Assembly: GCA_050125095.1 (NCBI GenBank)
Contig: JASFEA010000046.1
Coordinates: 1-20,282, forward strand
Source: a bacterium
GTDB taxonomy: Bacteria; Arandabacterota; Arandabacteria; Arandabacterales; JALGWA01
DNA: 20,282 bases
Reading direction: 5' to 3'
Positions 2 to 16,298 of the stretch are shown here, in pieces (the first letter of the stretch is position 1; every line of letters starts with the position of its first letter). The notes beneath the pieces were generated by a model that made no database searches, had not been told where the DNA came from, and saw nothing but the letters and a program-made list of their open reading frames with translations. Position numbers and translations under genes: made by a program.

Positions 2-1951
2 CTTATAGCCGCTTATCCTCTCGGCGGCGCCATTCCAGACGAGGATGTTGGCCTCCCTGTCGGCGGCGCTGATCCAGATATCCAGCGCGTCCATTATGCC
101 TCCGAGAAAGCGGCTGAGGGCGAGCGCCTTCTGCTCGGCCCGCTTGCGGGCTTCGATGTCGCGAACGAAGGCCAGCACTCTGTTGCGCGGGCCATACTCG
201 GCAAGCGACAGATTGACCTCGACCCAGAACACCCGGCCCGACTTGTCCTTGCAGCGCCACTCGAAGAGGCTGGAGCCCTCGGCGGCTGCGATCTTGATTA
301 GCCTGACTGCATCCTCATTTGTGAAAGGGCTTTCGCCGGCGCTTATGTCTCCCACGTTGAGCCTGAGCATCTCGTCATGAGAATAATCCAGCATCTCGCA
401 GGTTTTCCGATTTACGTCCAGGATGCGGCCGGTCTCCGGTTCGTGCACGAATATGCCGTCGCTGGCGCTGTCGAATATGGCGCGGTAGGCCGCCTCGGAC
501 CCTCGCAGCGTCTGGCTTGCCTGTTTGCGCTCGATGCTGCTGGCGAGGACCCTGCCGACGGCGGACAGGAACTCCATCTCTTGCTCGCTGCATGCATGGC
601 AGTCCCCGAGATAGAGGTTGATGAGCCCGAGCAGTCTGCCAGATGAGGATATTGGGACGCAGTACTGGCTGCGCGCCCCTTCCGGCTGGCACTGCCGCTG
701 CTCCTTTCCGCTGCCGCCCGAGCGGTACATGATCTGGCCCGTCGCGGCCGCGGCGCCGCAGAAGCACTCCCCCACCCTGCGCCTCGCGCAGGCCCTGAGG
801 GTTTCGGTTGAGAGCCCGGACTCGGCCCTCATGACAAGCGAGTCGGTGGCCGGGTCCATGAGCAATATGCCGCCCATTGCGTCGGGCTCGAACCACGGCA
901 CTTCGAGAATGGCGGCCAGCATCTTCTCAAGCATCGCGTCCCGCGAGTCCTCTTCCAGCGAGATCTGCAGGAGGTCGTTTATTACCTTCTGGGCCTGCCA
1001 GGAGCGCTCGATCACTTCCCCGGCCGCGTGCCTGTCGGTCACGTCCCTTATGACTCCGACTATGCCGGTCGGCACATTGTCGTCGCCCAGCATGAAGGAC
1101 ATATTGAGCTCGCCCCACAGCGTCGAGCCGTTCTTGGTCATGAATTCCAGCTCGAGCACCCTGGACCTGCGCGGGTCCCTGTTGCGCATCGCATCGGGCG
1201 AGAGCTCATCCACCACCGCCGCCATGGCGACCTCGAGCGACCGCCCGCTGAGGAGTCCCTGGTACCCCATGCCCAGAGCCTCCTCGGCTGTGTATCCCAG
1301 AGTCCGTTCCACGGACGGGCTGACGAAGGTGAAGTTGAGGCCCATGTCCATGGTCCATATGATATCGTTGACGTACTCGGCGAACATGCGATAGCGCTTG
1401 TCGGTATCGTCGAGCTCTCTGGCGAAGAGCTCGTGCTCGGTAAGATCCACCATGGAGATCCACACGCGTTCGTAGGTGGCATCATATCCCGGCGCCACCC
1501 AGAACTTGAGAAGCAAGTGCTTCTTGGCGCCGCTGAGTGTCCTGTTGTAAGTATCGGCTTCCATCGAGGTCCTGCCCTCTGCCATGGCGACAAGCACCTG
1601 CTTGAAGCCGTCGTAGGACTCCTCGCAGAATAGCTTGTCTACATTGCCGAGGAGTTCGGCTACGTCCCGCGCCCCATAGAGCGCTGCCGTGGCTTCATTG
1701 ACGGCGTTAACCTTGACCATGGCCGCGCACTTGGCCACTTCTTCGGGATGGTAGTCCAGGTAGGTTCTGATGTCCTCTACGCCCGACCGCAGAATCGAAT
1801 CCAGGTAGGCTTTGACATCGGACGCGTCCTCTTCCCAGAGGGACACCGGAGCCTGCTTGAAGAGCGCCCTGTAGAGCATACCGGCCTGAGGAGCAGGCCG
1901 TGATTCGCCGGCCCGGTCCGGGCGCGCGGCGTCGCAGGTAGTCGGCTTCAC
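2..1951 (-). CDS. Multi-PAS/GAF sensor protein, partial (3' end and output domain lie beyond the left edge)
   Basis: Absent from the ORF track because it has no stop in the window. Manual translation is open from GTG at 1951 (SD GAAGGGG 5 nt upstream; alternative ATG 1879) to the edge. It contains PAS-like LFKQAPVSLWEEDAS, PAS YRMFAEYVNDIIWTMD...GIVGVIRDVTDR, GAF GECFCGAAAATG...YCVPISSSGRLLGLINLY, PAS YRAIFDSASDGIFVHE...LAFVRDIEARKRAE, and the start of another PAS (WNGAAERISGYK). Confidence 0.9.
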   Translation of the reverse strand, partial: MKPTTCDAARPDRAGESRPAPQAGMLYRALFKQAPVSLWEEDASDVKAYLDSILRSGVEDIRTYLDYHPEEVAKCAAMVKVNAVNEATAALYGARDVAELLGNVDKLFCEESYDGFKQVLVAMAEGRTSMEADTYNRTLSGAKKHLLLKFWVAPGYDATYERVWISMVDLTEHELFARELDDTDKRYRMFAEYVNDIIWTMDMGLNFTFVSPSVERTLGYTAEEALGMGYQGLLSGRSLEVAMAAVVDELSPDAMRNRDPRRSRVLELEFMTKNGSTLWGELNMSFMLGDDNVPTGIVGVIRDVTDRHAAGEVIERSWQAQKVINDLLQISLEEDSRDAMLEKMLAAILEVPWFEPDAMGGILLMDPATDSLVMRAESGLSTETLRACARRRVGECFCGAAAATGQIMYRSGGSGKEQRQCQPEGARSQYCVPISSSGRLLGLINLYLGDCHACSEQEMEFLSAVGRVLASSIERKQASQTLRGSEAAYRAIFDSASDGIFVHEPETGRILDVNRKTCEMLDYSHDEMLRLNVGDISAGESPFTNEDAVRLIKIAAAEGSSLFEWRCKDKSGRVFWVEVNLSLAEYGPRNRVLAFVRDIEARKRAEQKALALSRFLGGIMDALDIWISAADREANILVWNGAAERISGYK

Positions 1952-1997
1952 ATTGTCCCCTTCGCTGGATAGAGGCGGAGCACTTCTCCACTTTAGT

Positions 1998-2025
1998 TTT
2001 TCGGCAGGGACCTAAGCCGGCTTTA
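1998..2025 (-). promoter_or_regulatory. Putative sigma28 (FliA) promoter for the PAS/GAF sensor gene
   Basis: Minus strand TAAA-gccggcttaggtccct (16 nt)-GCCGAAAA, about 47 nt upstream of the GTG start. One mismatch to the TAAA-N15/16-GCCGATAA consensus. Confidence 0.65.
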
Positions 2026-2034
2026 GGTAAGGGG

Positions 2035-2223
2035 CTACGGGATTTCAGCCCTCAGGCTTATGGCCTTCAAGCTCCGGAGCAGCGTGTCGGCGACCCCGAG
2101 AACCAGGTGGCGGTTCTCGCAAAGGAGGCCCTCTCTCCTTAAGAAGCTCAATACATAGGTGCCTCTGGCAAGCGCCCGGGCCTGGGTATCGAGTTTATCA
2201 CGAAGGTCATGACTTCTTCGCAA
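2035..2223 (-). CDS. Possible small hypothetical protein (62 aa)
   Basis: TTG start preceded by AAGGAGGAGG. It overlaps the end of the upstream gene by 17 nt and fills the gap up to the sigma28 promoter. No recognisable domain, and the SD-like run also encodes KEE in the upstream gene. Confidence 0.4.
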   Translation of the reverse strand: MRRSHDLRDKLDTQARALARGTYVLSFLRREGLLCENRHLVLGVADTLLRSLKAISLRAEIP

Positions 2224-3013
2224 GGTCCTCCTCCTTGAGATTGATCATGTTGATGCCGTCCGCATACGGAGTGGCCTTGGCCTCCTTGAGCGACCTGAGC
2301 CTCGAGATGACGCCTTCTATCTCCCGGCATTCCTCCTCGATTCTCTCAAGCGCGTCGCCCGCGCCGGTGACGACCCCCTCCTGGCCCTTCATGAAGCGTA
2401 CGGCGGCCTGAATGGCCGAGACGCTGTTATTGACGCTGTGGTTTATGCTGACAACCACCTCGCCGATGGCGGCGAGTCTCTCGGCTTTCACAAGCTCCTG
2501 CTGCGTCTGCTTCAGAAGCCCGTTCACGCGTTCGAGTTCCTGCACCTTGCTCGTCAGCGATTCATTGGCGGAGCTGAGCTCCAGTATGAGGCGCTGATTC
2601 TCGAGGGCGAGGAACCTGCGTTCGAGCGCCTGGTCCACATAGGCGAGTATCTGTGAAGATGTCAGCGGCTTTGTGAGATAGGAAACCGCTCCCCTGTGCA
2701 TCGCGTCCGCGGCGGACTTGACCGAGGCGTATCCGGTAATCATGATGAACTGCGTAAGGGGGAAGACGTCTTTCACCCCTGTCAGCAGGTCCATACCCGA
2801 AGTCCCGGGCATCTCAAGGTCGGTAATGACGAGATCGTATTCCTGGGACGTGGCGGCCACCAGGGCATCCGGTGAATGAGCATAGAGGTCGGGCGAATAT
2901 GTGCCCCTTCTCAAGACCTCTCCCAGAAGGTGCAGAATCTCCTCGTCGTCATCAACGATCGCGATTCTAACCTGCTTGTCGCCGGCGCGCGAATCCCTGT
3001 CATTAATGCCCAC
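2207..3013 (-). CDS. Response regulator: receiver + coiled coil + HisKA-like (DHp) domain, no HATPase domain
   Basis: Receiver residues intact (IVDDD, ITDLEMP, ITGY, LTKP). Then ELVKAERLAAIGEVVVSINHSVNNSV, an H-box-like segment, and the protein ends without N/G1/F/G2 boxes. Overlaps the upstream gene by 11 nt. Confidence 0.88.
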   Translation of the reverse strand: MGINDRDSRAGDKQVRIAIVDDDEEILHLLGEVLRRGTYSPDLYAHSPDALVAATSQEYDLVITDLEMPGTSGMDLLTGVKDVFPLTQFIMITGYASVKSAADAMHRGAVSYLTKPLTSSQILAYVDQALERRFLALENQRLILELSSANESLTSKVQELERVNGLLKQTQQELVKAERLAAIGEVVVSINHSVNNSVSAIQAAVRFMKGQEGVVTGAGDALERIEEECREIEGVISRLRSLKEAKATPYADGINMINLKEEDLAKKS

Positions 3014-4217
3014 TTTTAGCTCCTTTCCGCACCGGCAGCCAGATGGAGAAGGTGCTGCCCTTCCCCGGGCGGGAGTCCACGCCTATCGAACCGCCGTGCG
3101 CTTCCACAATGGCCTTAGCGACGGGAAGACCGAGCCCGGCGCCGGCAAATCGTCGTGTATGTGACATATCCGCTTGCGTGAAGGTGTCGAATATGTTGGC
3201 TATCTTCTCCCTGGGAATCCCGATCCCCGTGTCGGTGATGCTGACGGTGATGCCGCCGCGCTCGGGCGACTGGCGGACGCCGATCGTCACCGACCCCGAG
3301 TCCAGGTTGAACTTGACGGCGTTTTCTATGAGGTTGCGCATAACGACGCCCAGCTTTTCGACATCACCCTCGATCCTGGGTTCGCCGTCGCCGTCGAAAA
3401 CCACCTCGACTCCCTTGCTCTTTATGACCGGGTCTAAGGCGTCGATCGCCCCGGTAATAACTTCGCTTACCACAACCTCCTCTTCGGAGATCAGAAGATC
3501 GCCCGCCCTCACCTCCGTCATCACGAGAAGGTTGAGGATCAGGGTCTCCAGCCGGTCCAGGTTGACCTTCATGCCCTTCATCCATTTCCTCTCGGGGCCG
3601 TCGGCGCTGGCCAGCTGCTCGACGGAGGGCATGAGTATGCTGAGGTAGCCCTTCAGGGAGGTCAGCGGCGTGCGGAATTCATGAGAGATGGTGCTGATCA
3701 CATTGGTCTTTATCTGGTCAATCTCAATGAGTTTCTTCATGAGATGCGACAGCTCGATGTTCTCGCGGGCGAGCTTGCGCTTTTCCAGGCCGAGCCTCAC
3801 CGTCTTCTCGAGATCATGCAGGGAAAAGGGCTTCACAATGTAGTCGTAGGCGCCCTTCCTGAGGGCTTCGACGGCCGACTGCACCGTGGCATAGCCGGTC
3901 ATGATTATGAAGACCGTGTCCGGGTCGACATCCAGCACCTCTTCGAGCAGGCCGACTCCGCTCATGCCCGGCATCCTGAGATCGCTCACGACGGCGCTGA
4001 AGGTCCGTTCGTGAATCAGAGAGAGGGCCTGTCTCGAGTCCCTCGCCATCTCCGTGGCATAGCCCTTGGAAGCCAGGAATTCCGACAGGGCAAAAAGAAT
4101 GTCCTCCTCGTCGTCGACCAGGAGGACGCGTTTTTCGTCCGGCTTTTCCCTGATTTCTCTAAGCTCTTTTTCGAGCACGAATGTTGAACCGCTTTCCTCG
4201 GGAGTAAGGGTAGTCAC
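3003..4217 (-). CDS. Hybrid sensor histidine kinase (REC-HisKA-HATPase_c), cytoplasmic
   Basis: Receiver LVDDE...SDLRMP...MTGY...VKP; H-box SHEFRTPL; N-box NLIENAVKF; G1 DTGIGI; F-box IFDTFTQ; G2 GAGLGL. GTG start with AGGAG SD. No transmembrane segment. Confidence 0.95.
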   Translation of the reverse strand: MTTLTPEESGSTFVLEKELREIREKPDEKRVLLVDDEEDILFALSEFLASKGYATEMARDSRQALSLIHERTFSAVVSDLRMPGMSGVGLLEEVLDVDPDTVFIIMTGYATVQSAVEALRKGAYDYIVKPFSLHDLEKTVRLGLEKRKLARENIELSHLMKKLIEIDQIKTNVISTISHEFRTPLTSLKGYLSILMPSVEQLASADGPERKWMKGMKVNLDRLETLILNLLVMTEVRAGDLLISEEEVVVSEVITGAIDALDPVIKSKGVEVVFDGDGEPRIEGDVEKLGVVMRNLIENAVKFNLDSGSVTIGVRQSPERGGITVSITDTGIGIPREKIANIFDTFTQADMSHTRRFAGAGLGLPVAKAIVEAHGGSIGVDSRPGKGSTFSIWLPVRKGAKSGH

Positions 4218-4235
4218 CGTTATGCTCCTATCCTG

Positions 4236-5129
4236 CTAGTGCGAGGGAACAAGAGAACGGGCCACGCCTTCATCCGCAACTGAAGCCGGCGATCCGGGCT
4301 CGCCGGATCCCGCCTCCCCGGCGGTGGAAAGAAGCGTGTCCCTGTAGGCCCGCAGCCTTCCTCTGAGCCTCAGCATGGCCTTGGTGTGTATCTGCGAAAT
4401 CCTGGATTCGGAGACACCGAGGGTGCGTCCGATCTCCTTGAGGGTCATGTCCTCGTAATAGTAGAGAGCCACAACCGTTCTTTCCTTGTCAGGAATATTC
4501 ATGATGGCTTCGGCAACGATGTCCCGCATCTGCTCCCTCTCGATGCCGGCGGAAGGCGACACGCCGTCTTTGGCGCAGACCAGGTCGATAATCCTGGAGG
4601 TCTTTTCCCCGTCCTGGTTTCCGACGAAGTCGTCCAGGGAGAGAAGCCCCGCCGAGACAATCTCCTCGACCATGGTGCGCAGATCGGAGAGCGAGATGTT
4701 GAGCCTGTTGGCTATCTCGGCGTCGGTGGCTGCCCTGCCGAGCTCGTTCTCCAGGTGGGAGTAGGTTTCCTCGAGCATCCTGGCCTTGCGCCGCACCGAC
4801 CGCGGCACCCAGTCTAAAGATCGCAGGTCGTCCACGATCGCGCCGCGAATACGGGCCACGGCATATGTCTCGAACTTGGTGTCCCGTCCGGGATCGTATT
4901 TCTCAATTGCGTCCATGAGACCGACGACTCCGGCGCTCACGAGGTCGTCGATTTCAACCGACGGGGGGACCGACATCGCCATCCTGCCGGCGACGTACTT
5001 AACCAAGTAGAGGTAGTTCTGAATCAGGCTGTCCCTGATCCCGGTGGACTGAGCCTTCCTGTATTCAGCCCAGAGACCAATCAGTTCCTCCTGGCTAAGT
5101 CCGGCGGAAGTCCTGTTCATAGTCACCAT
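4236..5129 (-). CDS. fliA: RNA polymerase sigma-28 factor (FliA/WhiG/SigD family)
   Basis: DDLVSAGVVGLMDAIEKYDP, KFETYAVARIRGAIVDDLRSLDWVPRSVR, and region 4 LYYYEDMTLKEIGRTLGVSESRISQIH. Confidence 0.96.
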   Translation of the reverse strand: MVTMNRTSAGLSQEELIGLWAEYRKAQSTGIRDSLIQNYLYLVKYVAGRMAMSVPPSVEIDDLVSAGVVGLMDAIEKYDPGRDTKFETYAVARIRGAIVDDLRSLDWVPRSVRRKARMLEETYSHLENELGRAATDAEIANRLNISLSDLRTMVEEIVSAGLLSLDDFVGNQDGEKTSRIIDLVCAKDGVSPSAGIEREQMRDIVAEAIMNIPDKERTVVALYYYEDMTLKEIGRTLGVSESRISQIHTKAMLRLRGRLRAYRDTLLSTAGEAGSGEPGSPASVADEGVARSLVPSH

Positions 5130-5172
5130 CCTTCTTGTAAGCCAACCCTAGCAACACCAGCCGCTCATATAC

Positions 5173-5188
5173 TGCAATGGGTGTGCCT
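5173..5188 (-). promoter_or_regulatory. Putative sigma54 (-24/-12) promoter for the fliA operon
   Basis: Minus strand AGGCAC-ACCCA-TTGCA with exact GG-N10-GC spacing, 44 nt upstream of the fliA ATG. A sigma54 activator gene lies directly upstream. Confidence 0.8.
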
Positions 5189-5225
5189 ACTCACGGCAAG
5201 ATGGCAACATAGGCCAATGATTCTA

Positions 5226-5238
5226 TAAATCATTGAAA
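5226..5238 (-). promoter_or_regulatory. IHF-like site 1
   Basis: Minus strand TTTCAA-TGAT-TTA versus consensus WATCAANNNNTTR (1 mismatch), in an AT-rich patch ~40 nt upstream of the -24 element. Confidence 0.55.
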
Positions 5239-5319
5239 AGAAACAGATTAGGGAAGCGGCCGGCCTTGCCCGAGGCCTAAAAACCGGGGGATTTGGCACT
5301 TTGCTTCGGGTATTTAGTA

Positions 5320-5332
5320 TAACCTATTGAAA
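5320..5332 (-). promoter_or_regulatory. IHF-like site 2
   Basis: Minus strand TTTCAA-TAGG-TTA (same single mismatch), in a second AT-rich patch 94 nt from site 1. Confidence 0.5.
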
Positions 5333-5558
5333 ATAAATCAATTACGCATGGCCAGAGACTCCGGTGACCTAATCCTGTGGTAAGTTTTCAACCAGTGAAA
5401 ATCACCAGGCATGCGGAAAGGTCAGCACCCCGCGAATCGCGCCTGACGTGCAGAGACTGATAAACCAAAGCACGAGATGGCACTCAGCGGGCTAAGACTT
5501 CAAATTAATGCCTAAATCTGCAAAAGGAAAGAAGGGTGGTAAGAGGCTGACCGGTTGG

Positions 5559-6950
5559 CTAAAAATCTGCCAGGTGGTACTTCTTGATTTTCTGTCTCAA
5601 AGTCTGTCTCGTTATGCCGAGTACGCGGGCCGCGCTCGACTTGTTTCCGCCGGCCCACTCAAGAGCCCCTATAATGGCGCGCTTTTCGGCTTCCTGTAAT
5701 GATATCGGCACTCTCGCCTGTTCTCTGAAGCTGATTTCGCTCGGGCCCGCCTGAGTCTTGTCCAGCATCTCAGCGGGAAGATGCTCCGCCAGGATGAGAT
5801 CGGTGCTCTCTAAGAGTATGGCCCTCTCGATGGTGTTCCTGAGTTCCCTTACGTTGCCGGGCCAGTGGTAGCGCATCATTATGTCCCTCGCCTCGCGCGA
5901 GAGGCCGCGCACCGAGCGCGTGAGCTCCCTGTTGAAGTGGTCGATGAAGTAGCTCGAGAGTATGGGGATGTCCTGCTTGCGCTCGCGCAGGGCCGGCACG
6001 TAAATGGGGATCACCATGAGCCTGAAGTAGAGGTCGCTTCTGAACTTGTCCTGGTCCATGGCGACCTTGAGGTCGCGGTTGGTGGCGGCGATAATGCGCG
6101 TGTTCACCACTATGTCCTCAACGCCGCCGACGCTCCTGAAGCGCTTGGTCTCGATAAGCCGGAGCACCCTGGACTGCAGACCCATGGGCATCTCCCCTAT
6201 CTCGTCCAGAAACAGAGTGCCTCCCTCGGAGAGCTCCACGAGCCCCTTCTTCTTCGCCATCGCGTCCGTGAAGGCGCCCTTCTCATGGCCGAAGAGTTCG
6301 CTCTCGAGGAGATGCTCGGGCAGTGAGGCGCAGTTGATCTCCATGAAGGGCTTGTCCTTGCTGGGGCCCTGGAAGTGAATGCCCCTTGCCACCAGCTCCT
6401 TGCCCGTCCCGCTCTCGCCCTGTATGAGCACCGTGGAGGCCCTGCTCTCGGCGACCTTCTCGATCACCTCGGCGATCTCCTCCATCATCTTGCTCTTGCC
6501 GACGACGAAGCGGTCGAACTCACGATAGCCGACCACTATCTGTCTTACCGACTGCGCCTCGCGCTTGAGGCGCGCCCCGTCGAGCCCCCTGTCCACGCTC
6601 TCCGCCAGTTTATCGATGTCGACGGGCTTGGGCAGGCACTGGAAAGCCCCCAGGCGGGCCGCCTCGAAAGCCATCTCCACCTTCACGTCCTCGGCGAGCA
6701 GAATGACGGCCGTCTCCCTGTTGCTCTTCTTGCACTCCTTGAGGAAATCGGCTACGTCGACATCAGGCTGGTCTACATCGGCTATCAGGACGGCGTGGTT
6801 GCCGCTCTCCAGGGCCTTGAGGGCGTCTTCCACAGATGAGGCGGCCTTTGCCGTGCAGCCGAGTTTGGTGAGAGCCCTGGGGATTTCGGGGGCCAGGGCG
6901 GCGCTGCCGAAAAGGACTACGCTGAATCCGCTCTTGCGACTCTTAGCCAT
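5559..6950 (-). CDS. Sigma54-dependent enhancer-binding protein (NtrC/Fis family) with atypical receiver domain
   Basis: Walker A GESGTGKE, ESELFGHEKGAFTDA, Walker B TLFLDEIGE, IIAATNRDL, FRSDLYFRL, WPGNVREL, and Fis HTH GNKSSAARVLGITRQTLRQKI. The N-terminal receiver-like domain lacks the beta1 acidic pair. Confidence 0.96.
   Translation of the reverse strand: MAKSRKSGFSVVLFGSAALAPEIPRALTKLGCTAKAASSVEDALKALESGNHAVLIADVDQPDVDVADFLKECKKSNRETAVILLAEDVKVEMAFEAARLGAFQCLPKPVDIDKLAESVDRGLDGARLKREAQSVRQIVVGYREFDRFVVGKSKMMEEIAEVIEKVAESRASTVLIQGESGTGKELVARGIHFQGPSKDKPFMEINCASLPEHLLESELFGHEKGAFTDAMAKKKGLVELSEGGTLFLDEIGEMPMGLQSRVLRLIETKRFRSVGGVEDIVVNTRIIAATNRDLKVAMDQDKFRSDLYFRLMVIPIYVPALRERKQDIPILSSYFIDHFNRELTRSVRGLSREARDIMMRYHWPGNVRELRNTIERAILLESTDLILAEHLPAEMLDKTQAGPSEISFREQARVPISLQEAEKRAIIGALEWAGGNKSSAARVLGITRQTLRQKIKKYHLADF
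5702..5729 (-). promoter_or_regulatory. Possible intragenic sigma28 promoter pointing at fliA
   Basis: Minus strand TTCA-gagaacaggcgagagt (16 nt)-GCCGATAT, the same -35 and spacing as the site at 7935-7962. It lies inside coding sequence, so a chance match cannot be excluded. Confidence 0.4.
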
Positions 6951-6983
6951 GGGCCACCTGCGATTGAAGAAGCTCTGGCAGAG

Positions 6984-7013
6984 ATACTATTTTAGAGCGG
7001 GCGGATAAGTCAA
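6984..7013 (-). promoter_or_regulatory. Putative sigma70 promoter for the enhancer-binding protein
   Basis: Minus strand TTGACT-N18-TAGTAT, 34 nt upstream of the ATG at 6950. Confidence 0.6.
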
Positions 7014-7040
7014 CTTCTAAAATGCAAAGAGACTGGAGCT

Positions 7041-7283
7041 TCAGCGGGGCGGGTTCTCTTCCAGCAGGCGGGAGGCGACTATGCGGAGCACATTGTCGGT
7101 GTTGTAGTAGTCGGTCTCTATCCTGATCCTGGCCGCCATTATCTTATCCTCCCGGACGTTCTCCCTCTCGTCGCCGATCTCCTTCGAGATGCGGCGGCAT
7201 TCGGCGACCAGTTCGGCCGGGAGTTGGCTCAGCCTGTCCCGAGAGGCGGGCCTACCTGTTTTTTCGCTCTTTTCTATTTCCAT
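7041..7283 (-). CDS. flgM: Anti-sigma28 factor FlgM-like protein
   Basis: 80 aa, starts MEI. The C-terminal [32 protein letters not shown] fits the FlgM pattern (VRxxKVxxxKxxIxxGxY...IAxxLL). fliA and csrA are nearby. Confidence 0.75.
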
Positions 7284-7512
7284 TTTTGGACGCTTCCGGG
7301 TTCTGCTTCAGTCTCTGCTCACGAGGGGTCTTGGGGACCACCTTGCCGTTTTCACGGACGATGGCCTCATAGACCTCCATGCGGTGCACAGGTATCTCCT
7401 TGGGGGCGTTGATCCCGATCTGGACCTGCTCGCCCTTAATGTCTACCACAATGACCTCGATGCTGTCACCTATCATTATCCGTTCGTTGCGCTTCCGTGT
7501 CAGGATTAGCAC
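7252..7512 (-). CDS. csrA: Carbon storage regulator CsrA
   Basis: From GTG at 7512 (SD GAGGAGG): [48 protein letters not shown]. The ORF-track start at 7581 is too far upstream. Confidence 0.95.
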
Positions 7513-7525
7513 CTTTACTGCCTCC

Positions 7526-7891
7526 TCACAAACCCGGTGTATCTCCCACACCGGTGAGCTGCAATTCATGCACCTCTTCATCCATGCAAGTGTCTGTGTC
7601 GAAGTACCGACAGAGTCCTGTGATCTCGAGAACCTTCTTGAGCCTCGGCCTCATCCCCACGATGGATATGCGTCCACCCATCGACCTCAAGGTTTGTGCG
7701 TTTCCTACGAGAGTGCCCAATCCGGAGGAGTCAACGACGCTGACAGAGGTGAGGTCAAGCGTAATACGGAGCGCGCCATCGGCTATGGCCGATTGAATGG
7801 CCTCGCCGACGGCACTCGCGGTGTAAACATCTATACGGCCCGTCACTTCAATGCTGAAATTGTCGTTTTCGCGCCTGGTTCTGATTCTCAC
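7526..7891 (-). CDS. STAS-domain anti-sigma factor antagonist (SpoIIAA/RsbV-like)
   Basis: [28 protein letters not shown] with the phosphorylatable Ser motif, and [18 protein letters not shown] 9 nt before the GTG. Confidence 0.92.
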
Positions 7892-7934
7892 GACCCATAA
7901 CTCCTTTCAGAGGCCGTACCTGATCACATAATTT

Positions 7935-7962
7935 CTATCGGCACCCTCGATTGGCGACTGAA
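7935..7962 (-). promoter_or_regulatory. Putative sigma28 promoter for STAS-csrA-flgM
   Basis: Minus strand TTCA-gtcgccaatcgagggt (16 nt)-GCCGATAG in the 81-nt intergenic gap. Confidence 0.7.
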
Positions 7963-7972
7963 TCTACTTTTT

Positions 7973-9712
7973 TCACGAACAGGTCTCGGTCGGTGCGAAG
8001 AGCTGGTCCTCCAGGACCGTGCGCGTGACCCTCATCACTTCCTCCAGCGAGGTCACTCTCGCGGCGCATTTGTCCAGGCCGTCCTCGAGCATGGTGCGGT
8101 ACCCGGTGGCGCGGGCCTGCCTCCTGAGCGTCTGCTCGTCCGCGCCGTGCACTATGGTGCGCCTCATCTCATCGTTTATTACCACCAGCTCGTAGAGACC
8201 GACTCTCCCTCTGTAGCCCGACTGGGAGCATCTCTCGCAACCGACGGCCCTCAGGGTTCTCTCCAGATGCCTGACCTCTCCCGTCTCGGGAACTGTCACG
8301 TGGCAGGCAGCCGCCTCCTCCGCGCATGCTTCGCACAGCCTGCGGACCAGCCGCTGAGCCAGTATGGCCGAGACCGAAGAGGCGACCAGGAAGGGCTCTA
8401 TGCCCATGTCTATCAGCCTGGTGATTGCCGAAATGGAGTCGTTGGTGTGCACGGTGGTGAAGACCAGGTGACCGGTTAGGGCCGCCTGAATGGCGATCTC
8501 GGAAGTCTCCACGTCGCGCGTCTCGCCCACCATTATAATGTCGGGGTCCTGCCTGAGAATGGACCTCAGGCCGGCCGCGAAAGTGAAACCGGCGGCGGGA
8601 TTGGTGTGACCCTGATTGACTCCCCTTATCTGGCTCTCAACCGGGTCCTCCAGCGTCACGATGTTCTTATCCGGCGTGTTGATGCGGCTCAAGGCCGCGT
8701 AGAGCGTCGTGGACTTGCCGCTGCCCGTGGGCCCGGTAACCAGCACTATCCCGTGCGTCAGGCCCAGAACCTGGTTGAAAGTGCCGAGGACGCCGGGATC
8801 CATCCCGAGGTCTTCGAGCGGGATGGTGGAACCGCATCTCTCGAGAAGTCTCATGACGACCTTCTCGCCGTGTATCGTGGGAAAAGTCGAAACGCGCACA
8901 TCGAAACGGCGGCCCTTGATTCTCATTGTGAACCTGCCGTCCTGCGGCATGCGACGCTCCGCGATATTGACGTTGGCGAGGATCTTGAGCCTTGAAGTGA
9001 CCGCGGCCCTCAGCATCCTCGGAATGACCATGGCGTCCTGCAGCACGCCGTCCACCCTGTATCTCACCCTCAGGCAGCTCTCCTCGGGCTCGGTGTGGAT
9101 GTCGCTCGCGCTCTTGTCGACCGCGCGCTCTATGATGAGGTTCACCAGCTTTACAACGGGCGCCTCGTGGCTGAGTTTCTCGGTCTCGCCGATGTCATCC
9201 TGGTCGGCCTCCTCCAGGCCGTCTCCTATCTGGGTGTTGAGCTCTTCCATGGCCTCGACAAGCGTCCCCGGCATGCCGTAATAGGACTCGATGGTCGTGA
9301 TTATCTCGTTCTGCCTGGCGATAACCGGTTCCACCTCGCAGCCCGTGACAAACCTTATTTCTTTTATAGCTTCCGAGTTGGTCGGGTCGGCCATGGCCAC
9401 CGTGAGCCTGTCTTCAACCCTGAGGATGGGAATGGCCAGAAGGTCGCGGGCCATGTTCTCCGAGATGAGCCCTATGACCACGGGATCGATGACGGTGGTC
9501 TCGAGGCTCATGCAGGGAATACCGAGCTGGGTGGACAGCGCCTCACCGATCTGGGTTTCGGTAGCCGCGCCCTCCTCGATGGCCAGCTCACCCAGGCGTT
9601 TCCTGACCTTTCGCTGCCTCTCAAGAAGGCCCGCGAGCACTTCCTGCGTGATTACGCCGGCCTTTACGAGGATGGAGCCGAGTTTGCTGTAATACAGGTC
9701 GTTGCTATCCAT
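7973..9712 (-). CDS. GspE/PilB-family secretion or pilus assembly ATPase with N-terminal MshEN domain
   Basis: [15 protein letters not shown], Walker [10 protein letters not shown], Asp box TLEDPVE, Walker [13 protein letters not shown], His box [11 protein letters not shown], and tetracysteine CEAC...CERC. Tandem (K/R)LG motifs at the N-terminus. Confidence 0.95.
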
Positions 9713-11570
9713 CTCGCTGGCATTCGCTTTCCGGAAGGAGCGTGTCCATATTGTCCTGGAAAACCGGACATGCGTAACAGCCCGCCGGACTGTGATCCCT
9801 GTCGCCGCACAGGCTGCGGTCTATGTCCTCGGCAAGGAAGCAGCGCCAGTCGGCCTGCCCGTACTCCGGGCAGGAGCGCTTTTCCTCATCGTCGTGCTCG
9901 AATTCCTCCCAGCACCTCTTGAACTCGCCCGCGTCATGCGGCAGGTTAAGCTGGCGAGCCACGGCCCTTATGAGCGTGGCCGTGTTCGCGAGGGCGTCGA
10001 AGTAGACCCCGAGGCCGTCTCTCACCGAGCCGACGTACTCATCGACGGCATCGAGGAGTTTTATGCCGCGGTCTATGAGCTCTATCGAGTCGCTCCCGCT
10101 TGTGACCGCCCCCGCGCACCCGGCGACGATGCCCGGTCCGCCCGCCGGATACGCCGCGGCGTAATTTGCTGCGGGGACCCTGGGGCTGCCGGCCGGAACC
10201 ATGACGCGATTTAAGACCTTGAGCGTCTGGGCAGCGGTCGCCCCCCGCCGCGACCCCGCACCCCTTTCCGAATTGGAGGCGTCGAGCCTCCGCGCGATCT
10301 CGGCCACGTTCTGGAAGGACCTGACCACGTGGTTGCTGTCCATGCGGTGCTCCGAGGTGTTGGAGGCTATTTCATGCGCGATGTTGCGCGCCATTTCGAA
10401 GGAATCCGATATCTTGTCTATCACCTTGCCGGCGCTGCCGACCAGCACCTCTCCCCTTTCCACCCTCTCGACGCTCTCCTTCATCTCCACCACCACGTTG
10501 GCCACGCTGGTCTGCACGGTGGTTATGAGGTCGCTTATCTCCTTGGTGGAAGAGCTCGTCCTCTCGGCCAGCCCGCGTATCTCTTCGGCCACGACGCCGA
10601 ATGCCTTACCGTGCTCACCCGACTGCGAGGCGATGATGGCGACGTTCAGGGCAAGCAGGTTGGTCTCATCGGCGATGTCCTTGATTACCTCGATGATCTT
10701 GCCGATTTCCTGCGACCACATCCCGAGCGTGCCCGCCGACTTGGCGGCCTTCTTGACGCTCGCTATGGTGGCGCGGTTCTCCTTTTCCATTTCCTCTATG
10801 ACCTTGATCGCCTCGAGCGCGACACGGTTGGCCGTATCGGTCGATGACTCGAGGTCCTTGCCGCTTCTCACCATATCCTGGAGGAAGGAGTCCAGCCGTG
10901 ACACCGAGTAGGAAGTCTCGCCGGCCGAGCTCAGAAGCTCCTTGGCGTCATGTCGGACGTCCCTCAGCACGGCCGTCATGTCCTCAAGCGAACCCGAGAT
11001 GTCGTCCAGCAGATCGGAGACCTGGCCGGATGCGCCTTCGGGTCCGGATTCGACGGCGTCGCCCGGGCCTGAACCCCATGCAGCCGCCGGCTCGGCGGGC
11101 CTGAGCGTCCTCAGCGTAACCAGCGCTCCCCTGAGACCGGTCACGCTCTCTTCGAGTTCGCCCATCTTGGCAAACACGTCCCGCCTGATCTTGACGGACA
11201 CCGACTCGGCGTCATTGACCGCGGCCACGAGCGAGTAACACGTCCTCAGCATGGCCCTGAGGGCCAGCCTCGAGGTCTCCACCTCGCGTGCGATTTCCTC
11301 ATAATCGGGCGGAAGGCCTACGTCCACGCTATCCCCTTCACGGCCGCCCGTGATTCTATCGCGCAGTTTCATAATGGGAAGCATCGCGCTGCGCGCCCAA
11401 TTCACAAACCAGGCCAGCACCAATACCGTGGCCGCCACTGCGGCGTATGTCCAGGGGTGTGGCCCGATGGTAAGAGCAAGCGTGATTGCCGCGCCCAGCG
11501 TAAGGCATAGAGCGGCCGTCAAGAGGTGGAGATTTTTCATTATGTTTGACGAAGTCACACTATCCCCCAA
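9705..11570 (-). CDS. Methyl-accepting chemotaxis protein, atypical (2 TM, no periplasmic domain, Cys-rich C-terminal tail)
   Basis: Hairpin tip [43 protein letters not shown]; two adjacent N-terminal hydrophobic helices. Start uncertain (TTG 11570, GTG 11558 or ATG 11540). Overlaps the ATPase start by 8 nt. Confidence 0.9.
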
Positions 11571-11638
11571 ATAACGAATGCTCTAAATCATCTATCGTCA
11601 GTCGGCCGGCCCGGCATTAGCGCTTCCGCCCTCGGGCT

Positions 11639-14185
11639 CTAAGACCCGACCGCCTCTGTGCCGGCGCGATTGACGTCCAGTACATATACGCTTTCGCCTT
11701 CGAGCGCAAAACGAGCGGCGCGCCTTACCGGCCCGTCGGCGGCGCCATGGCCGGCTTGTTCGGTAATCTCGAGCTTTTCGACGGGCACCTCCATCTCTCC
11801 AATCACCCTGCTCACTCCGACGCCGCATCGCTCGGGAAACTTGAGTATGGCGATTTTGGCCATGGAGTCTCCGTTCCCGCCGGCACAGCCGAAGCCGCCA
11901 CCACCCGTGCCGCCGCCCGTGCCGCCACTTTCTCCGTTGCCGCCCTCACCATTGCCGACCTTGAGAAGGCCGTGGCAGAGCCCGCGCTCGAAGAATATGC
12001 CCTCCCATGTATTCCCGAGCACCGGCACCTCGACCAGAGGCCGCATCGGCACTACCTGGCTCAATATGCTTAAGGGAACCGCGCAGAGTCCCATCGCGGT
12101 CTCGAAGAGCCCCATTTTGCAGAATGACCTGCCGCTGCCTGCCGAACCCAGGCCCACCTCAGGGGGGTACCTGTCCACCGGCTTCCTGCCGGCCGCATAG
12201 GCCCGGCCCCCGGCCCTCAGCAGCGGCTCGGGTTGTACTATGACCGCCGGCCGCCGGTCGTGAAGCTCGGTGGCCCCTGCAATAACGGGCGGCGCATGCA
12301 TGGACTCCGGAAGCGGCCTCGTTGCTATGTCGGTTTCCCCCCACACCCTCCCGACGACCATGGCGTGGCGCACGTCGCCCAGTCCGAGAATCACCAGCGA
12401 CCTGGGGGCCTCGTGGCGCTCGGCGCCGAGAAGACCGGCAAGGTCAAAGGCCTCCACCCTCCCATGCCTTATCGTCCCGGCGAATCCCCCTTCTTCTATC
12501 TCGCGCTTGAGCCTGCCCCTGTAAGGGATGATTTCCTCAACATATGTCAGGGGCAGAACGGCGGTGATGCCGCCCTCCTCGAAAACCACACCCCGGGACA
12601 CAGCCAGAGTGAGCGGCACCAGGAGCGAGAAACAGGTGCCCCTGCCGGGCCTGGTCTCGACATTGACCAAGCCCCGAAGGGACTCTATATGCACCTTTAC
12701 CTCGTCGAGCCCTACGCCTCTCCCCGAGATCTCGGTCACCTCGGCGCTGGTGCTCACCCCGGGTTCGAAAAGCAGGCTCACCAGGTCGTCCTCCGAGAAC
12801 TCATCTATGCCTTTCGCACGCGCGATCTTCTCTATTTTCTCGAAGTCGAAACCCGCGCCGTCGTCCTCTATGTCAATCCTCACATAATTGGACTCCTGTC
12901 TAGCTCTCAGCGTGATTCTGCCGCCCGCCGGCTTTCCTCGGCGAGCCCGCTCCTCTTCGGGCTCGATACCGTGGTCTACCGCGTTCCGGATAAGATGGAG
13001 TACGGGGTCGTATATCTCTTCCAGCAGCGCGCGGTCGATCCGGGTTCCCTCACCCTGGAAGGCGAGGTCGATGGTCTTGCCCTGCTTGCGCGCCAGTCTT
13101 CTTATCTCGCCCGTATAGCGTTCGAAGAGCATAGAGACGGGCACCAGCCTCGCCTCCATGATCGCCGATTCGATCTCGTTTATGCGGCGGTTCAACAGCA
13201 GCCCGAGCTTCAGAAGCTCGTCGCGCTCTTTCCTTCCCGTGATGGTAGCGGCCAGACCTCTCGCCACCTCAGCCAGCTTGAACCTCACAGAGTAGAGTTC
13301 CGAGATGGAGTTCATAACCGAGTCGAGGCGTGAAAGGTCGACCTTCACCGACATGGGCGCGGGCGCCTTCGCTTTGGGGGCCCGGCTGCCCGCCGTGCCG
13401 GCACCCTCGGGCCGGACTGCGCTGCACCGGCCATCACCGTGAGGGCTTGCGGCGCGCGCCTCAATGAGACTGCCGCCCATCTCACCTATGTAGATGTCGA
13501 AGGCCTCGCCTTCGGATTCCACGGAATAGAGCAGCGCAAGAGTCCGTTCGCCGGCCTGGCCGGGAGGAGGCGGCACGGCCAGAACCTTGCCGTACTTCTC
13601 GAGCTCGGGCAGCACCTCGCCTGCAAGTTCGGAGAAGGACTTGCCGTTCAACTTGAAGGTCATGTGCACCACCCGCTTGCCCGTCTTGAGACACTCGGCG
13701 ATTTCTTCGCTCTCCCACGGCATGAGCTCATCCAGACTGCCCGAAGGCAGCCGGCCCCTGAGGTCCTTAAGCGGGTCGGCCTCCGGCTTGTCTGGAACGG
13801 TTCCGAGGAAGCTCTCTATGCGGGCGATGACCCCCTCCGGGTCGGTCTCGACCTCTTCCCCCTTTGCCTCGCGGAGCATGAGGACGATTTCATCCAGAGC
13901 TTCTATTATGGTGTCTATGGCTGTCGGGCCGAGGGCCATGCCGCCCGAGCGCACCTCTTCGAGCACGTTCTCGACAGCCCCGGCTATTCTGCCGACGTCG
14001 ACAAGCTCGAACATGCCGGCAGTGCCCTTGAGCGAATGGGCCTTCCGGAACAGGGCGTTTACGAAGGTCTCCGAGTCGGCCCGGGCAGGGTCCAGTGTGG
14101 CGAGATCACGCGAGAGTCTCTGCACGGCCTCAAGGCTCTCGGCGATGAAGTCGCTTCTCATCCGCTCCAGTTGTTCTTCCGACAT
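11639..14185 (-). CDS. cheA: Chemotaxis histidine kinase CheA with an additional C-terminal CheW-like domain
   Basis: Hpt LFRKAHSLKG; dimerisation SVKVDLSRLDSVMN; HATPase HLIRNAVDHGIE, DDGAG, LFEPGVST, SGRGVGLD; P5 VPLTLAV...IAGATELHDRRP; then a second CheW-like region. Confidence 0.94.
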   Translation of the reverse strand: MSEEQLERMRSDFIAESLEAVQRLSRDLATLDPARADSETFVNALFRKAHSLKGTAGMFELVDVGRIAGAVENVLEEVRSGGMALGPTAIDTIIEALDEIVLMLREAKGEEVETDPEGVIARIESFLGTVPDKPEADPLKDLRGRLPSGSLDELMPWESEEIAECLKTGKRVVHMTFKLNGKSFSELAGEVLPELEKYGKVLAVPPPPGQAGERTLALLYSVESEGEAFDIYIGEMGGSLIEARAASPHGDGRCSAVRPEGAGTAGSRAPKAKAPAPMSVKVDLSRLDSVMNSISELYSVRFKLAEVARGLAATITGRKERDELLKLGLLLNRRINEIESAIMEARLVPVSMLFERYTGEIRRLARKQGKTIDLAFQGEGTRIDRALLEEIYDPVLHLIRNAVDHGIEPEEERARRGKPAGGRITLRARQESNYVRIDIEDDGAGFDFEKIEKIARAKGIDEFSEDDLVSLLFEPGVSTSAEVTEISGRGVGLDEVKVHIESLRGLVNVETRPGRGTCFSLLVPLTLAVSRGVVFEEGGITAVLPLTYVEEIIPYRGRLKREIEEGGFAGTIRHGRVEAFDLAGLLGAERHEAPRSLVILGLGDVRHAMVVGRVWGETDIATRPLPESMHAPPVIAGATELHDRRPAVIVQPEPLLRAGGRAYAAGRKPVDRYPPEVGLGSAGSGRSFCKMGLFETAMGLCAVPLSILSQVVPMRPLVEVPVLGNTWEGIFFERGLCHGLLKVGNGEGGNGESGGTGGGTGGGGFGCAGGNGDSMAKIAILKFPERCGVGVSRVIGEMEVPVEKLEITEQAGHGAADGPVRRAARFALEGESVYVLDVNRAGTEAVGS
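11894..11957 (-). repeat. Low-complexity Gly-rich coding stretch with a 12-nt-period tandem duplication
   Basis: CCCGTGCCGCC at 11904-11914 and 11916-11926. Encodes GNGEGGNGESGGTGGGTGGGG inside the last CheA domain. Confidence 0.6.
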
Positions 14186-14243
14186 ATCGCGTTCCCCGGA
14201 TGCAGGGCATACCTGCCCGTCTCAAGACACTTCTCCGGTACAA

Positions 14244-14271
14244 TTATCGGCACTCGGGGAATCGTTCTTTA
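14244..14271 (-). promoter_or_regulatory. Sigma28 promoter for cheA-mcp-ATPase
   Basis: Minus strand TAAA-gaacgattccccgagt (16 nt)-GCCGATAA, perfect -35 and -10 boxes, 59 nt upstream of the cheA ATG. Confidence 0.85.
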
Positions 14272-14314
14272 AAAGGGCGGTGGGACATTGAAGCCTGTCT
14301 TTGCTCGCCCGCTC

Positions 14315-14698
14315 CTAGCCGGCGAGAGACTTCTGCGCGAGGTACTGCTCTATGACAAGCCGGTCGTAGTCGTCGATATCGGTGAAGAAACAGCCTATTT
14401 CGTAGAGCTTCTTGCCCTTGGCGACCTTCTCCGGAACCGTACGGACGACCATGCCCTCGCAGGTGATCGGATGCTTCTCGACCTTGCCGTCGCTGTCGGT
14501 AACGGGGATTACCAGCGACACCTTGAGCTTGGTCATAGGGGGAACGTGGAAAGGAAGCGCGCAGTAGAAACCGCCTGCGCTCAGGTTAATGGTTCTGGCG
14601 GTGAAGAACTGCCCCTCGTCATCCAGGCCCTGCATATCGATGGGCATGTCCAGCGCAGCCCTTCTATGCTTCCTCCGTTCCTCTTTATCTCTGGCCAT
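14315..14698 (-). CDS. Single-domain PilZ protein (predicted c-di-GMP receptor)
   Basis: ERRKHRR (RxxxR) and NLSAGG (D/NxSxxG). ATG 14698 with GAGGAGG SD is preferred over the ORF-track start at 14779. Confidence 0.92.
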   Translation of the reverse strand: MARDKEERRKHRRAALDMPIDMQGLDDEGQFFTARTINLSAGGFYCALPFHVPPMTKLKVSLVIPVTDSDGKVEKHPITCEGMVVRTVPEKVAKGKKLYEIGCFFTDIDDYDRLVIEQYLAQKSLAG

Positions 14699-14766: not shown

Positions 14767-14794
14767 TTGACTTCGTCATATATTGGAATATGAT
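14767..14794 (+). promoter_or_regulatory. Putative sigma70 promoter for the thioredoxin-fold/TPR gene and thyX
   Basis: TTGACT-N16-TATGAT in an AT-rich divergent intergenic region. Confidence 0.6.
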
Positions 14795-14815
14795 TTAACT
14801 CAAAACCCCATGGAT

Positions 14816-15673: not shown

Positions 15674-15677
15674 AACC

Positions 15678-16298
15678 TTGGAAATCGAGATGCTGACTAT
15701 CACACCCGATTGCGAGAAGGTCATAGAGCGGGCCGGGCGCACCTGCTACATGTCGCTGGACAAGGCCGGCGGGGAGTCGACCGACCGTTTTGTCCGTATG
15801 CTTGTCACTCGCGGTCATCACTCTGTCCTGGAGCACGCTTCGGCGACCTTTGCAATCAGCGGCGTATCGCGCGCGTGCACGCATCAGCTGGTCAGGCACA
15901 GGCTGTGTTCTTTCTCCCAGAAGTCGCAGCGTTATGTTTCCGAGAGGGAGACGGGCTTCGTGGTGCCCGAGTCGGTGGCCGCCAGCGAGGAGGCCCTCAA
16001 AATCTTCACGGACTCCACCGCCGCCTCGCACGCGTCTTACGAGAAACTCGTAGAGCTGGGTATACCCAAGGAGGACGCGCGGTTCATCATCCCGGGCGCC
16101 GTGCACACCGACATCGTCCTCACCGCCAACCTGCGGGAACTCCGCCACGTCATAGAGCTCAGGGGCTCGAGGCACGCCCAGTGGGAAATAAGGGAGCTCG
16201 CCGTGGCCATGCTTGGGATACTGAAGAAGGAGGCTCCCAACGTCTTCTTCGATCTTGATGCCGGCGCGGACGGCTGCGTAACAAGGACAGGGCCTTAA
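15678..16298 (+). CDS. thyX: FAD-dependent thymidylate synthase ThyX
   Basis: AGRTCY, GHHSVLEH, SRACTHQLVRHRLCSFSQKSQRY (RHRx7S motif), EDARFIIP, AQWEIR. Start TTG 15678 (or ATG 15690). Confidence 0.96.
   Translation: MEIEMLTITPDCEKVIERAGRTCYMSLDKAGGESTDRFVRMLVTRGHHSVLEHASATFAISGVSRACTHQLVRHRLCSFSQKSQRYVSERETGFVVPESVAASEEALKIFTDSTAASHASYEKLVELGIPKEDARFIIPGAVHTDIVLTANLRELRHVIELRGSRHAQWEIRELAVAMLGILKKEAPNVFFDLDAGADGCVTRTGP

Follow-up and report, generated by a model that had tools for sequence, protein, structure and literature searches.

Why would a bacterium keep a sigma-28 factor, an FlgM-like protein, CsrA and a sigma-54 activator, together the textbook logic for ordered flagellum building, in a cluster with no flagellar structural gene? 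The question is raised by contig JASFEA010000046.1 (20,282 nt; hereafter the window), which is the whole of contig C46 of G000, a 3.35-Mb, 268-contig, 91% complete metagenome-assembled genome (MAG) of Candidatus Eisenbacteria, a phylum of which we know no cultured representative. Twelve co-oriented minus-strand open reading frames (ORFs) form the cluster, with a G+C content at third codon positions of 0.63-0.83. In the reading that we favour with moderate confidence, it is a non-flagellar sigma-28 circuit, specific to the Candidatus Eisenbacteria lineage, that drives a type IVa pilus and a minimal set of chemosensory genes. The evidence is computational throughout: this reading is carried by the gene content, by the paralogy of its sigma factor (SIG) and of its CsrA, by the conservation of gene order and promoters, and by the persistence of the cluster in genomes without flagella.

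Gene content of the cluster

Domains were assigned by Pfam and NCBIfam profile scans of the window ORFs. The genes, all on the minus strand, are given in the order of transcription.

14315..14698, minus strand: PilZ-domain protein (conserved start Met28; the longest ORF reaches 14779)
11639..14185, minus strand: CheA (P1, P3, P4, P5) with a weak C-terminal CheW-like domain
9705..11570, minus strand: methyl-accepting chemotaxis protein (MCP; MCPsignal E 3.6e-34)
7973..9712, minus strand: PilB/GspE-family secretion ATPase with an MshEN-type N-terminus
7526..7891, minus strand: STAS-domain protein of the anti-sigma-antagonist family (PF01740, E 1.1e-18)
7252..7512, minus strand: CsrA paralogue (PF02599, E 1.3e-21; the longest ORF reaches 7581)
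7041..7283, minus strand: p80, an FlgM-like candidate anti-sigma factor of 80 amino acids (aa)
5559..6950, minus strand: EBP, an NtrC-type sigma-54 enhancer-binding protein (REC-AAA+-HTH)
4236..5129, minus strand: SIG, a FliA/WhiG-family sigma factor (TIGR02479)
3003..4217, minus strand: hybrid REC-HisKA-HATPase kinase, RECHK (Pfam and NCBIfam)
2207..3013, minus strand: canonical REC with a coiled coil and a degenerate HisKA without ATPase domain, RECx (Pfam)
2..1951, minus strand: PAS-GAF-PAS-PAS protein without output domain (it continues onto contig C121, where it gains only one more PAS)

The initial annotation counted about 13 co-oriented genes here. Twelve stand at these positions; for the thirteenth, a small ORF, Pfam returned no match and the relatives no counterpart. 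As had been claimed, the Pfam and NCBIfam scan detected no flagellar structural genes in the window. No RNA family reached its gathering score in an Rfam scan of the same sequence.

Flagellar genes elsewhere in the genome

The initial annotation had proposed a search of the whole genome for flagellar genes. FlhA, flagellin, FliW, motA and others are found on two other contigs of G000.

Contig C74: flgE, fliL, fliM, fliOPQR, flhB, flhA, flhF, a second FliA/WhiG sigma, PilZ, FapA, HDOD and rod genes
Contig C8: flgG, flgA, flgI, flgJ, flgN, flgK, flgL, fliW, csrA, glycosyltransferases, flagellin, fliS, fliD, flbD and motA

The second sigma, directly after flhF on C74, is of the TIGR02479 FliA/WhiG type (237 bits) and shares 42% identity with SIG; the CsrA of the flagellar cluster is 40% identical to the window CsrA. 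Only one FliW was found in G000, and none lies beside the window CsrA. Since the flagellar set thus has its own FliA, CsrA-FliW and flagellin, the window genes are paralogues, and by sequence comparison the flagellar set elsewhere reveals paralogy and not a split operon. The initial annotation had held that a complete flagellar set with a sigma-28 flagellin promoter elsewhere would speak against repurposing. Formally G000 has both, yet the repurposing reading is not refuted, because the set has a separate sigma factor and a flagellin promoter with a different spacer.

The same genes bring up an alternative that we regard as unlikely, namely that the window is a flagellar and chemotaxis late-gene island set apart from the structural genes, with SIG as the main sigma-28 factor, p80 as FlgM, EBP as an FlrC/FlgR-like activator, and cheA, mcp and PilZ as ordinary class III genes. 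The only CheA and MCP found in G000 sit in the window, p80 is one of two FlgM-like matches in the genome (both weak), no flgM precedes flgN-flgK on C8, and SIG resembles canonical flhA-linked FliAs; in E. coli, che genes and PilZ brakes are normally under sigma-28. Against such an island stand the dedicated flhF-linked FliA and the FliW-CsrA pair that accompany the flagellar genes.

Two features of the flagellar contigs are recorded here in their own right. The flagellin gene on C8 has a conserved leader of about 230 nt (about 15478-15745) with GGA motifs, a GGCAAGGAAGCC element and a G-rich ribosome-binding site, the pattern expected for CsrA-FliW control; fliW-csrA lies 8 kb upstream on the same contig. 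On C74 (10355-12260), flhF overlaps the start of the flagellar fliA, with no FlhG/MinD-like gene between them.

Conservation across the phylum and independence from flagella

Among 18 genomes of the phylum, SIG orthologues of 56-89% identity occur in 15. The order PilZ-CheA-MCP-ATPase-STAS-CsrA-p80-EBP-SIG-RECHK-RECx, whose conservation the initial annotation had left to synteny comparison, is common to all 13 order-level loci; in seven of them it lies complete on a single contig, and in six a contig end interrupts it. PilZ-CheA-MCP-p80-like-EBP-SIG-RECHK is retained in the two class-level loci, where the small ORF between MCP and EBP ends in the G-Y-Y-D motif of p80; ATPase, STAS and CsrA were not found in these two loci. 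The PAS-GAF gene and its promoter are a genus-specific addition, found only within the genus.

In none of the 15 Eisenbacteria loci is SIG linked to flhA or flhF. Its nearest relatives outside the phylum are canonical FliAs of 42-53% identity located downstream of flhB-flhA-flhF, and none of them has the cluster alongside. In a quick maximum-likelihood tree, biased in that its 95 rows were picked by similarity to SIG, the cluster-type sigmas group together (SH-aLRT 95), apart from a long-branch clade formed by the flhF-linked sigmas of Eisenbacteria (98).

None of FlhA, flagellin and FliP was found in seven of the 18 genomes (G003, G005, G008, G010, G011, G014 and G015); G006 lacks FliP only. 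SIG is present in six of these seven non-flagellate genomes, which belong to four genera and are 98, 93, 91, 87, 73 and 57% complete. Four of the six were aligned (G003, G005, G008 and G014), and the neighbouring genes and all promoters within contig reach are present in them. The flhF-linked FliA type, on the other hand, is seen in eight genomes, each with FlhA. The retention of the cluster and its promoters in six of the seven genomes without FlhA, flagellin and FliP argues against a flagellar late-gene island. Because the non-flagellate genomes are interspersed among the flagellate ones on the SIG tree, loss of flagella with retention of the cluster probably happened more than once.

Promoters and their conservation

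Six promoter-like sites had been proposed in the window, one of them, near 5702, tentatively; all six were recovered where the initial annotation had put them.

6984..7013, minus strand: sigma-70-type promoter of EBP, TTGACT-N18-TAGTAT
5173..5188, minus strand: sigma-54 promoter (-24 GG / -12 GC) of the SIG-REC-kinase operon, aGGCAC-N5-TTGCA
14244..14271, minus strand: sigma-28-type promoter of the cheA-mcp-ATPase operon, TAAAG-N15-GCCGATAA
7935..7962, minus strand: sigma-28-type promoter of the STAS-csrA-p80 operon, TTCAG-N15-GCCGATAG
1998..2025, minus strand: sigma-28-type site upstream of the PAS-GAF gene, TAAAG-N15-GCCGAAAA
5703..5729, minus strand: sigma-28-type site within the 3' end of EBP, about 600 nt upstream of SIG, TTCAG-N15-GCCGATA

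The sites are held in the order-level loci. The sigma-70 site of EBP reads TTGACTT ... TAGTATG in 11 of 11, the sigma-54 site of SIG follows GGCA[CT]-N5-[TC]TGCA in 11 of 11, and the STAS site is likewise kept in 11 of 11; the cheA site, T-n-n-A-G N15 GCCGA, occurs in all seven orthologous loci that hold the region. The common sigma-28-type form at the cheA and STAS loci is T-n-n-A-G, 15 bases, GCCGA(T/A). The site internal to EBP is present in 11 of 11 loci, 170 nt before the stop codon in nine and 182 nt in two, and was measured at 224 nt before the stop in the window itself; its T-n-n-A-G persists although the encoded residues differ. This site is a candidate autoregulatory promoter of SIG. 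About 157 nt upstream of the sigma-54 site lies an inverted repeat, TAAC(C/T)-N15-(A/G)GTTA, found by pattern in six of the 11 loci and as a half-site in three more.

The flagellin promoters, readable at ten of 11 loci, form a different class (CTAAAGT ... CGAT, that is TAAAG-N16-CGAT without a TGC context). Every cluster-type site has N17 to CGAT with TGC preceding it, so that the flagellin spacer is 1 nt shorter. This difference in spacer and -10 context is a further point against an island of ordinary flagellar late genes. As two conserved promoter classes stand alongside two sigma paralogues, a division of labour between them is suggested. SIG is the sole sigma-28-family factor found in the non-flagellate genomes and therefore the only candidate reader of the GCCGA class there. 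We infer that SIG itself reads the T-n-n-A-G N15 GCCGA sites of six gene sets.

Candidate targets outside the cluster

A genome-wide scan for the sigma-28-type motif, which the initial annotation had proposed, sets the N15 form apart: G000 holds 18 matches, against 7, 12, 8 and 3 for spacers of 13, 14, 16 and 17, and three of the 18 fall in the 20-kb contig of the window. The genomes of five relatives hold 12 to 22 matches each to THMAG-N14-TGCCGAT and 0 to 2 to the reversed pattern, an enrichment that is overstated, as the reversed control holds TAG, a triplet scarce in coding DNA. Genes located downstream of the G000 matches were compared with those downstream of part of the matches in the five relatives. 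Two close gene pairs emerged, a solute-binding protein and a CheY-like gene, and their promoters were then checked across the phylum. Two further cross-genome matches, at only 22-29% identity, were set aside.

The CheY-like gene encodes a single-domain receiver, is present in non-flagellate genomes, and has the promoter in every order-level locus whose upstream sequence reaches far enough (14 of 14). In G003 (contig C61, 2509-5933) and G005 (C86, 2446-5756) the next gene on the same strand is an ORF of 71-74 aa without family match, and ComEC (Competence plus metallo-beta-lactamase) comes after it; this neighbourhood hints at a link to DNA uptake. The other target is an orphan PF04392 solute-binding protein next to hrcA-grpE-dnaK-dnaJ, with the promoter in 14 of 15 loci. 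In G000 (C59, 12662-13757) it has no ABC permease or ATPase beside it and lies directly upstream of grpE-dnaK-dnaJ; hrcA is there in G003.

Two pattern matches 3.9 kb downstream of pilC led to a type IVa pilus cluster of Myxococcus/Geobacter-like layout, in the order pilT-pilC-pilS-pilR-pilA, ABC ATPase, ABC-2 permease, a 347-aa protein, a PAS protein, pilM, pilN, pilO, a 257-aa protein and pilQ. Just past the pilA terminator, in front of ABC-pilMNOPQ, a GCCGA-class promoter stands in 11 of 12 order-level loci, the twelfth reading GCCGAC. A platform protein (T2SSF) was found in 17 of the 18 genomes. The promoter before the pilus genes is the best evidence for the output of the circuit, and its place before a pilus operon is hard to square with an island of flagellar late genes. 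The initial annotation had ventured that flagellar control logic was repurposed for an output other than the flagellum, for instance a type IV filament. That proposal is favoured by the separate FliA and CsrA-FliW kept with the flagellar genes, by the cluster in six non-flagellate genomes, and by the pilus promoter in 11 of 12 loci.

The remaining candidate targets of SIG in G000 (a TonB receptor, an M23 peptidase, a HEAT protein, a GAF protein, a GNAT, a REC-HDOD protein and an epimerase) are near chance expectation and were not retained. It is improbable, in our estimate, that the cluster is instead a general lifestyle or developmental switch governed by cyclic di-GMP (c-di-GMP), acting in biofilm, stress or dormancy in the manner of Streptomyces WhiG, with pili as one of many targets and the ATPase unrelated to them. 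Such a switch would suit the presence of two c-di-GMP receptor modules, PilZ and MshEN, and the heterogeneity of the G000 candidates (TonB receptor, M23 peptidase, GAF protein, REC-HDOD, and the solute-binding protein beside hrcA-grpE-dnaK-dnaJ), and WhiG2 offers a precedent (PMC12871210). Outside the cluster, however, promoter conservation is seen only at the CheY-like gene, the solute-binding protein and the pilus operon, and proximity to chance tells against the other targets.

p80, a FlgM-like protein

The initial annotation called p80 flgM. The likeness holds in part: the protein is FlgM-like and is modelled in complex with SIG at a score of 0.64, while it stays below the Pfam FlgM cut-off (PF04316, best E 0.054, 14.2 bits against a cut-off of 25). 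The family shares a conserved C-terminal block, R-x-D-K-I-x-x-A-R-x-R-x-x-x-G-Y-Y-D, which we take to resemble the sigma-binding helices of FlgM. A profile search confined to proteins of 40-140 residues sharing 5-residue words returned 108 relatives, all unannotated, with no tie to annotated FlgM. No FlgM above the Pfam cut-off was found in G000; there are two weak matches (E about 0.2), one of which is p80.

The model supports binding of p80 to SIG. The best of three controls scored 0.00, and a score of 0.64 is reached by 116 of 157 solved complexes and by two of 215 mismatched pairs; because a FliA-FlgM complex has already been solved, the score speaks for likeness and is not proof. The runs share at least 81% of contacts, with a partner pLDDT of at least 74, and the modelled contacts of p80 fall on SIG residues 33-72 and 201-236, in sigma regions 2 and 4. 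A flagellar export apparatus was not found in the non-flagellate genomes that keep p80.

Sensory, secretory and regulatory proteins

The PilZ protein (PF07238, 46.9 bits, E 3.8e-12) has orthologues that keep RxxxR (as RRKHRR) and N-x-S-x-x-G (as N-L-S-A-G-G), conforming to RxxxR and [D/N]xSxxG, which we take to be the c-di-GMP motifs of this family. In CheA, Pfam recognises Hpt, H-kinase_dim, HATPase_c and CheW; of the cheA-cheW fusion put forward initially, the CheA with its CheW domain stands, and the extra CheW-like domain in the C-terminal 194 aa is only a weak match (E 0.0054). By tblastn, this CheA and MCP are the only matches of their kind in G000; CheB was not found there. The MCP has two N-terminal hydrophobic segments, and its N-terminal 250 aa have no Pfam match and no recognised sensor domain. 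At its C-terminus (gene 9705-11570, tail within 9705-9900) is a Cys-rich tail of about 60 residues without Pfam match. Its six Cys take in a C-x-x-C, and it may sense metal or redox state.

The ATPase matches T2SSE (445 bits) and MshEN (PF05157, 77.7 bits) with tandem 24-residue motifs, and its c-di-GMP motif passes NF053729 (47.6 bits against a cut-off of 38). It falls short of both equivalog cut-offs, at 610.8 bits for GspE (cut-off 630.25) and 604 bits for PilB (675.65). Paralogues lie on contigs C127 and C9. The slightly higher GspE score, and a second ATPase-platform pair on C9, would fit a circuit that times type II secretion-like export, with the orphan ATPase as its GspE, and not pilus-based motility. 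We consider this very unlikely: the ATPase is below both curated cut-offs, the Pfam scan detected no platform, secretin or pseudopilin gene in the cluster around it, and the conserved external target is the pilMNOPQ operon beside pilA.

The STAS protein (TIGR00377, 77 bits against a cut-off of 53) has a DSSG motif. No rsbW-type (HATPase_c_2) kinase or PP2C phosphatase lies within the cluster; three HATPase_c_2 (RsbW-like) kinases, and PP2C phosphatases, are encoded elsewhere in G000. The window CsrA, for which a GTG start was inferred by comparing the starts of orthologues, passes the equivalog models NF002469 (85.8 bits, cut-off 73) and TIGR00202 (79.9 bits, cut-off 70.1). The Shine-Dalgarno region of SIG is AAGGA in ten of 11 aligned loci, and predicted folds of the SIG leader in seven loci share no common GGA hairpin. 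The thought that CsrA acts on this leader through a GGA-containing ribosome-binding site is suggestive only and stays a mere lead, because AAGGA is also simply a good ribosome-binding site.

EBP comprises Sigma54_activat (218 bits), HTH_8 and a partial REC match. Its sigma-54 contact loop is GAFTDA in all 13 orthologues, against the usual GAFTGA. SIG scores 276.4 bits with TIGR02479 (cut-off 189.6) and has all of Sigma70_r2, r3 and r4. The sigma-54 gene rpoN is present on contig C2 of G000.

Proposed wiring and its weighing

In the predicted circuit, a sigma-70 promoter would supply the NtrC-type activator EBP, which together with sigma-54 would switch on transcription of SIG, the REC-kinase and the REC adaptor. 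SIG would then act on the T-n-n-A-G N15 GCCGA(T/A) promoters of cheA-mcp-MshE-like ATPase, of STAS-csrA-p80 and of SIG itself, and on unlinked targets: the CheY-like regulator, the orphan solute-binding protein and the ABC-transporter-pilMNOPQ operon. By sequestering SIG, the FlgM-like p80 would close a negative feedback loop, and a further, translational one may run through the CsrA copy. PilZ and the MshEN domain of the ATPase would be the entry points for c-di-GMP, and phosphate would presumably pass from CheA to the CheY-like and REC proteins. The pairing of sigma factors with promoters, the anti-sigma role of p80, the phosphotransfer and the relief of p80 and CsrA are all inferred.

Several points weigh against this non-flagellar circuit. 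All 18 genomes are MAGs, in which absence of flagellar genes means that they were not found. In flagellated members the module may also serve swimming, because G000 showed no CheA or MCP other than those of the window, and no CheB. SIG stands nearer to the canonical flhA-linked FliAs of other phyla (up to 53% identity) than its flhF-linked paralogue does. No copy of the CheY-like gene turned up in the assembly of the window, and the pilus-operon promoter was not seen in the two class-level genomes. The -10 element of the site internal to EBP overlaps conserved Pro-Ile codons. The EBP receiver, canonical in the class-level relatives that lack a detected ATPase, STAS and CsrA, keeps its Asp and Lys in the order-level orthologues and has lost the acidic pair and the Thr. 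Membership of p80 in the FlgM family is not established: only three of 11 family members match FlgM at E <= 1, a PDB profile search with the p80 alignment gave one unrelated weak match and no FlgM, and the complex score may reflect the solved FliA-FlgM structure. Because G000 has no FlgM above the cut-off and p80 is one of its two weak matches, p80 might also be the flagellar FlgM.

A bolder extension of the circuit, which we hold to be a long shot, concerns the non-flagellate Eisenbacteria. There it could work as a type IV pilus assembly checkpoint that copies the flagellar one, in which p80, and possibly the CsrA antagonist with it, would be taken away or inactivated as soon as the pilus works. 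Release would come by export driven by the co-transcribed MshE-like ATPase or by a STAS partner switch on p80, with c-di-GMP (through PilZ and MshEN) and the CheA array gating the step. If true, no earlier case would exist of a type IV filament coupled to an anti-sigma-export or partner-switch checkpoint.

Neighbourhood of the cluster

The left end of the window (2-431) overlaps contig C121 (3-431) at 99% identity across 143 residues, and the two contigs are therefore adjacent. Past the PAS end, C121 encodes a methyltransferase, a FlgD_ig/Por_Secre_tail protein and, on the opposite strand, a large SpoIIE-type phosphatase. On the other side of the cluster, a thioredoxin-like/TPR gene (14783-15673, plus strand) is divergent from PilZ and keeps its place in the order-level relatives that reach it. 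A 285-aa protein without family match (17255-18112, plus strand) likewise keeps its position in the order-level relatives whose contigs extend there.

Relation to known systems

The polar-flagellum hierarchy of Vibrio and Pseudomonas runs through FlrA/FleQ, FlrC/FleR, sigma-54 and FliA-FlgM. The Eisenbacteria cluster resembles it in the predicted wiring, with an enhancer-binding protein and sigma-54 that lead to a sigma-28 gene, a small anti-sigma candidate within the sigma-28 regulon, and che genes under sigma-28. It differs in having no flagellar structural genes in or near the cluster, in being retained without flagella, and in having a pilus operon as its conserved external target; in the non-flagellate members no flagellar export apparatus was found that could remove an anti-sigma factor.

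Chemosensory arrays tied to type IV pili or to a sigma-54 activator are represented by Pil-Chp of Pseudomonas and by Frz, Dif and Che3-CrdA of Myxococcus. They share with the Eisenbacteria module an array of MCP, CheA and CheY-like protein that is not tied to flagellar rotation. In Eisenbacteria, unlike in these systems, there is one MCP and one CheA, no CheB was found, and a sigma-28-type factor of its own, with feedback through the FlgM-like protein and CsrA, would govern the module. MshE of Vibrio cholerae is a c-di-GMP-binding pilus extension ATPase. The window ATPase is built likewise, with two tandem 24-residue motifs in an N-terminal MshEN followed by a T2SSE ATPase, but its gene sits in a chemosensory operon that has no pilin, platform or secretin genes.

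The system that comes closest is the WhiG1/WhiG2 split of Actinomycetota, in which one sigma-28 clade stays with flagellar genes and WhiG2 answers to RsiG and c-di-GMP and controls sporulation, type IV pili and other functions, with pilus genes as targets in Rubrobacter and Actinoplanes (PMC12871210). The two cases share a flagellar sigma-28 clade beside a second, freed one, pilus outputs and a tie to c-di-GMP. The Eisenbacteria belong to another phylum, and no kinship of their clades to WhiG1 or WhiG2 is implied. Their anti-sigma candidate is short and FlgM-like, not RsiG; c-di-GMP would enter through PilZ and MshEN and not through the anti-sigma factor; and the SIG gene appears to be dependent on sigma-54 and EBP and is embedded with CheA, MCP, CsrA, STAS and an MshE-like ATPase.

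A likeness to the CsrA-FliW-flagellin switch of Bacillus and Campylobacter lies in the co-transcription of csrA with late-stage regulators, as given in a CsrA survey, which names Eisenbacteria only for the small number of their CsrAs predicted to repress B. subtilis hag (PMC13443453). The other CsrA of G000 adjoins fliW and flagellin, as in that switch; the window CsrA has no FliW alongside. Searches of a library of open-access papers yielded no description of the cluster, nor of a sigma-28-controlled pilus operon outside Actinomycetota.

Significance

Flagellar-type regulatory parts appear to have been duplicated and long kept in bacteria without flagella. Promoter evidence ties them to type IVa pilus assembly genes and to the only chemosensory pathway found in the organism. 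The promoter motifs and regulon members given here form a first regulatory map for the phylum. FlgM-type control relies on export through the flagellar apparatus, and the circuit thus raises the question of how a FlgM-like anti-sigma factor is released without one. If confirmed, it would be a second, independent case, after the actinobacterial WhiG2, of a flagellar sigma factor re-used for pili.

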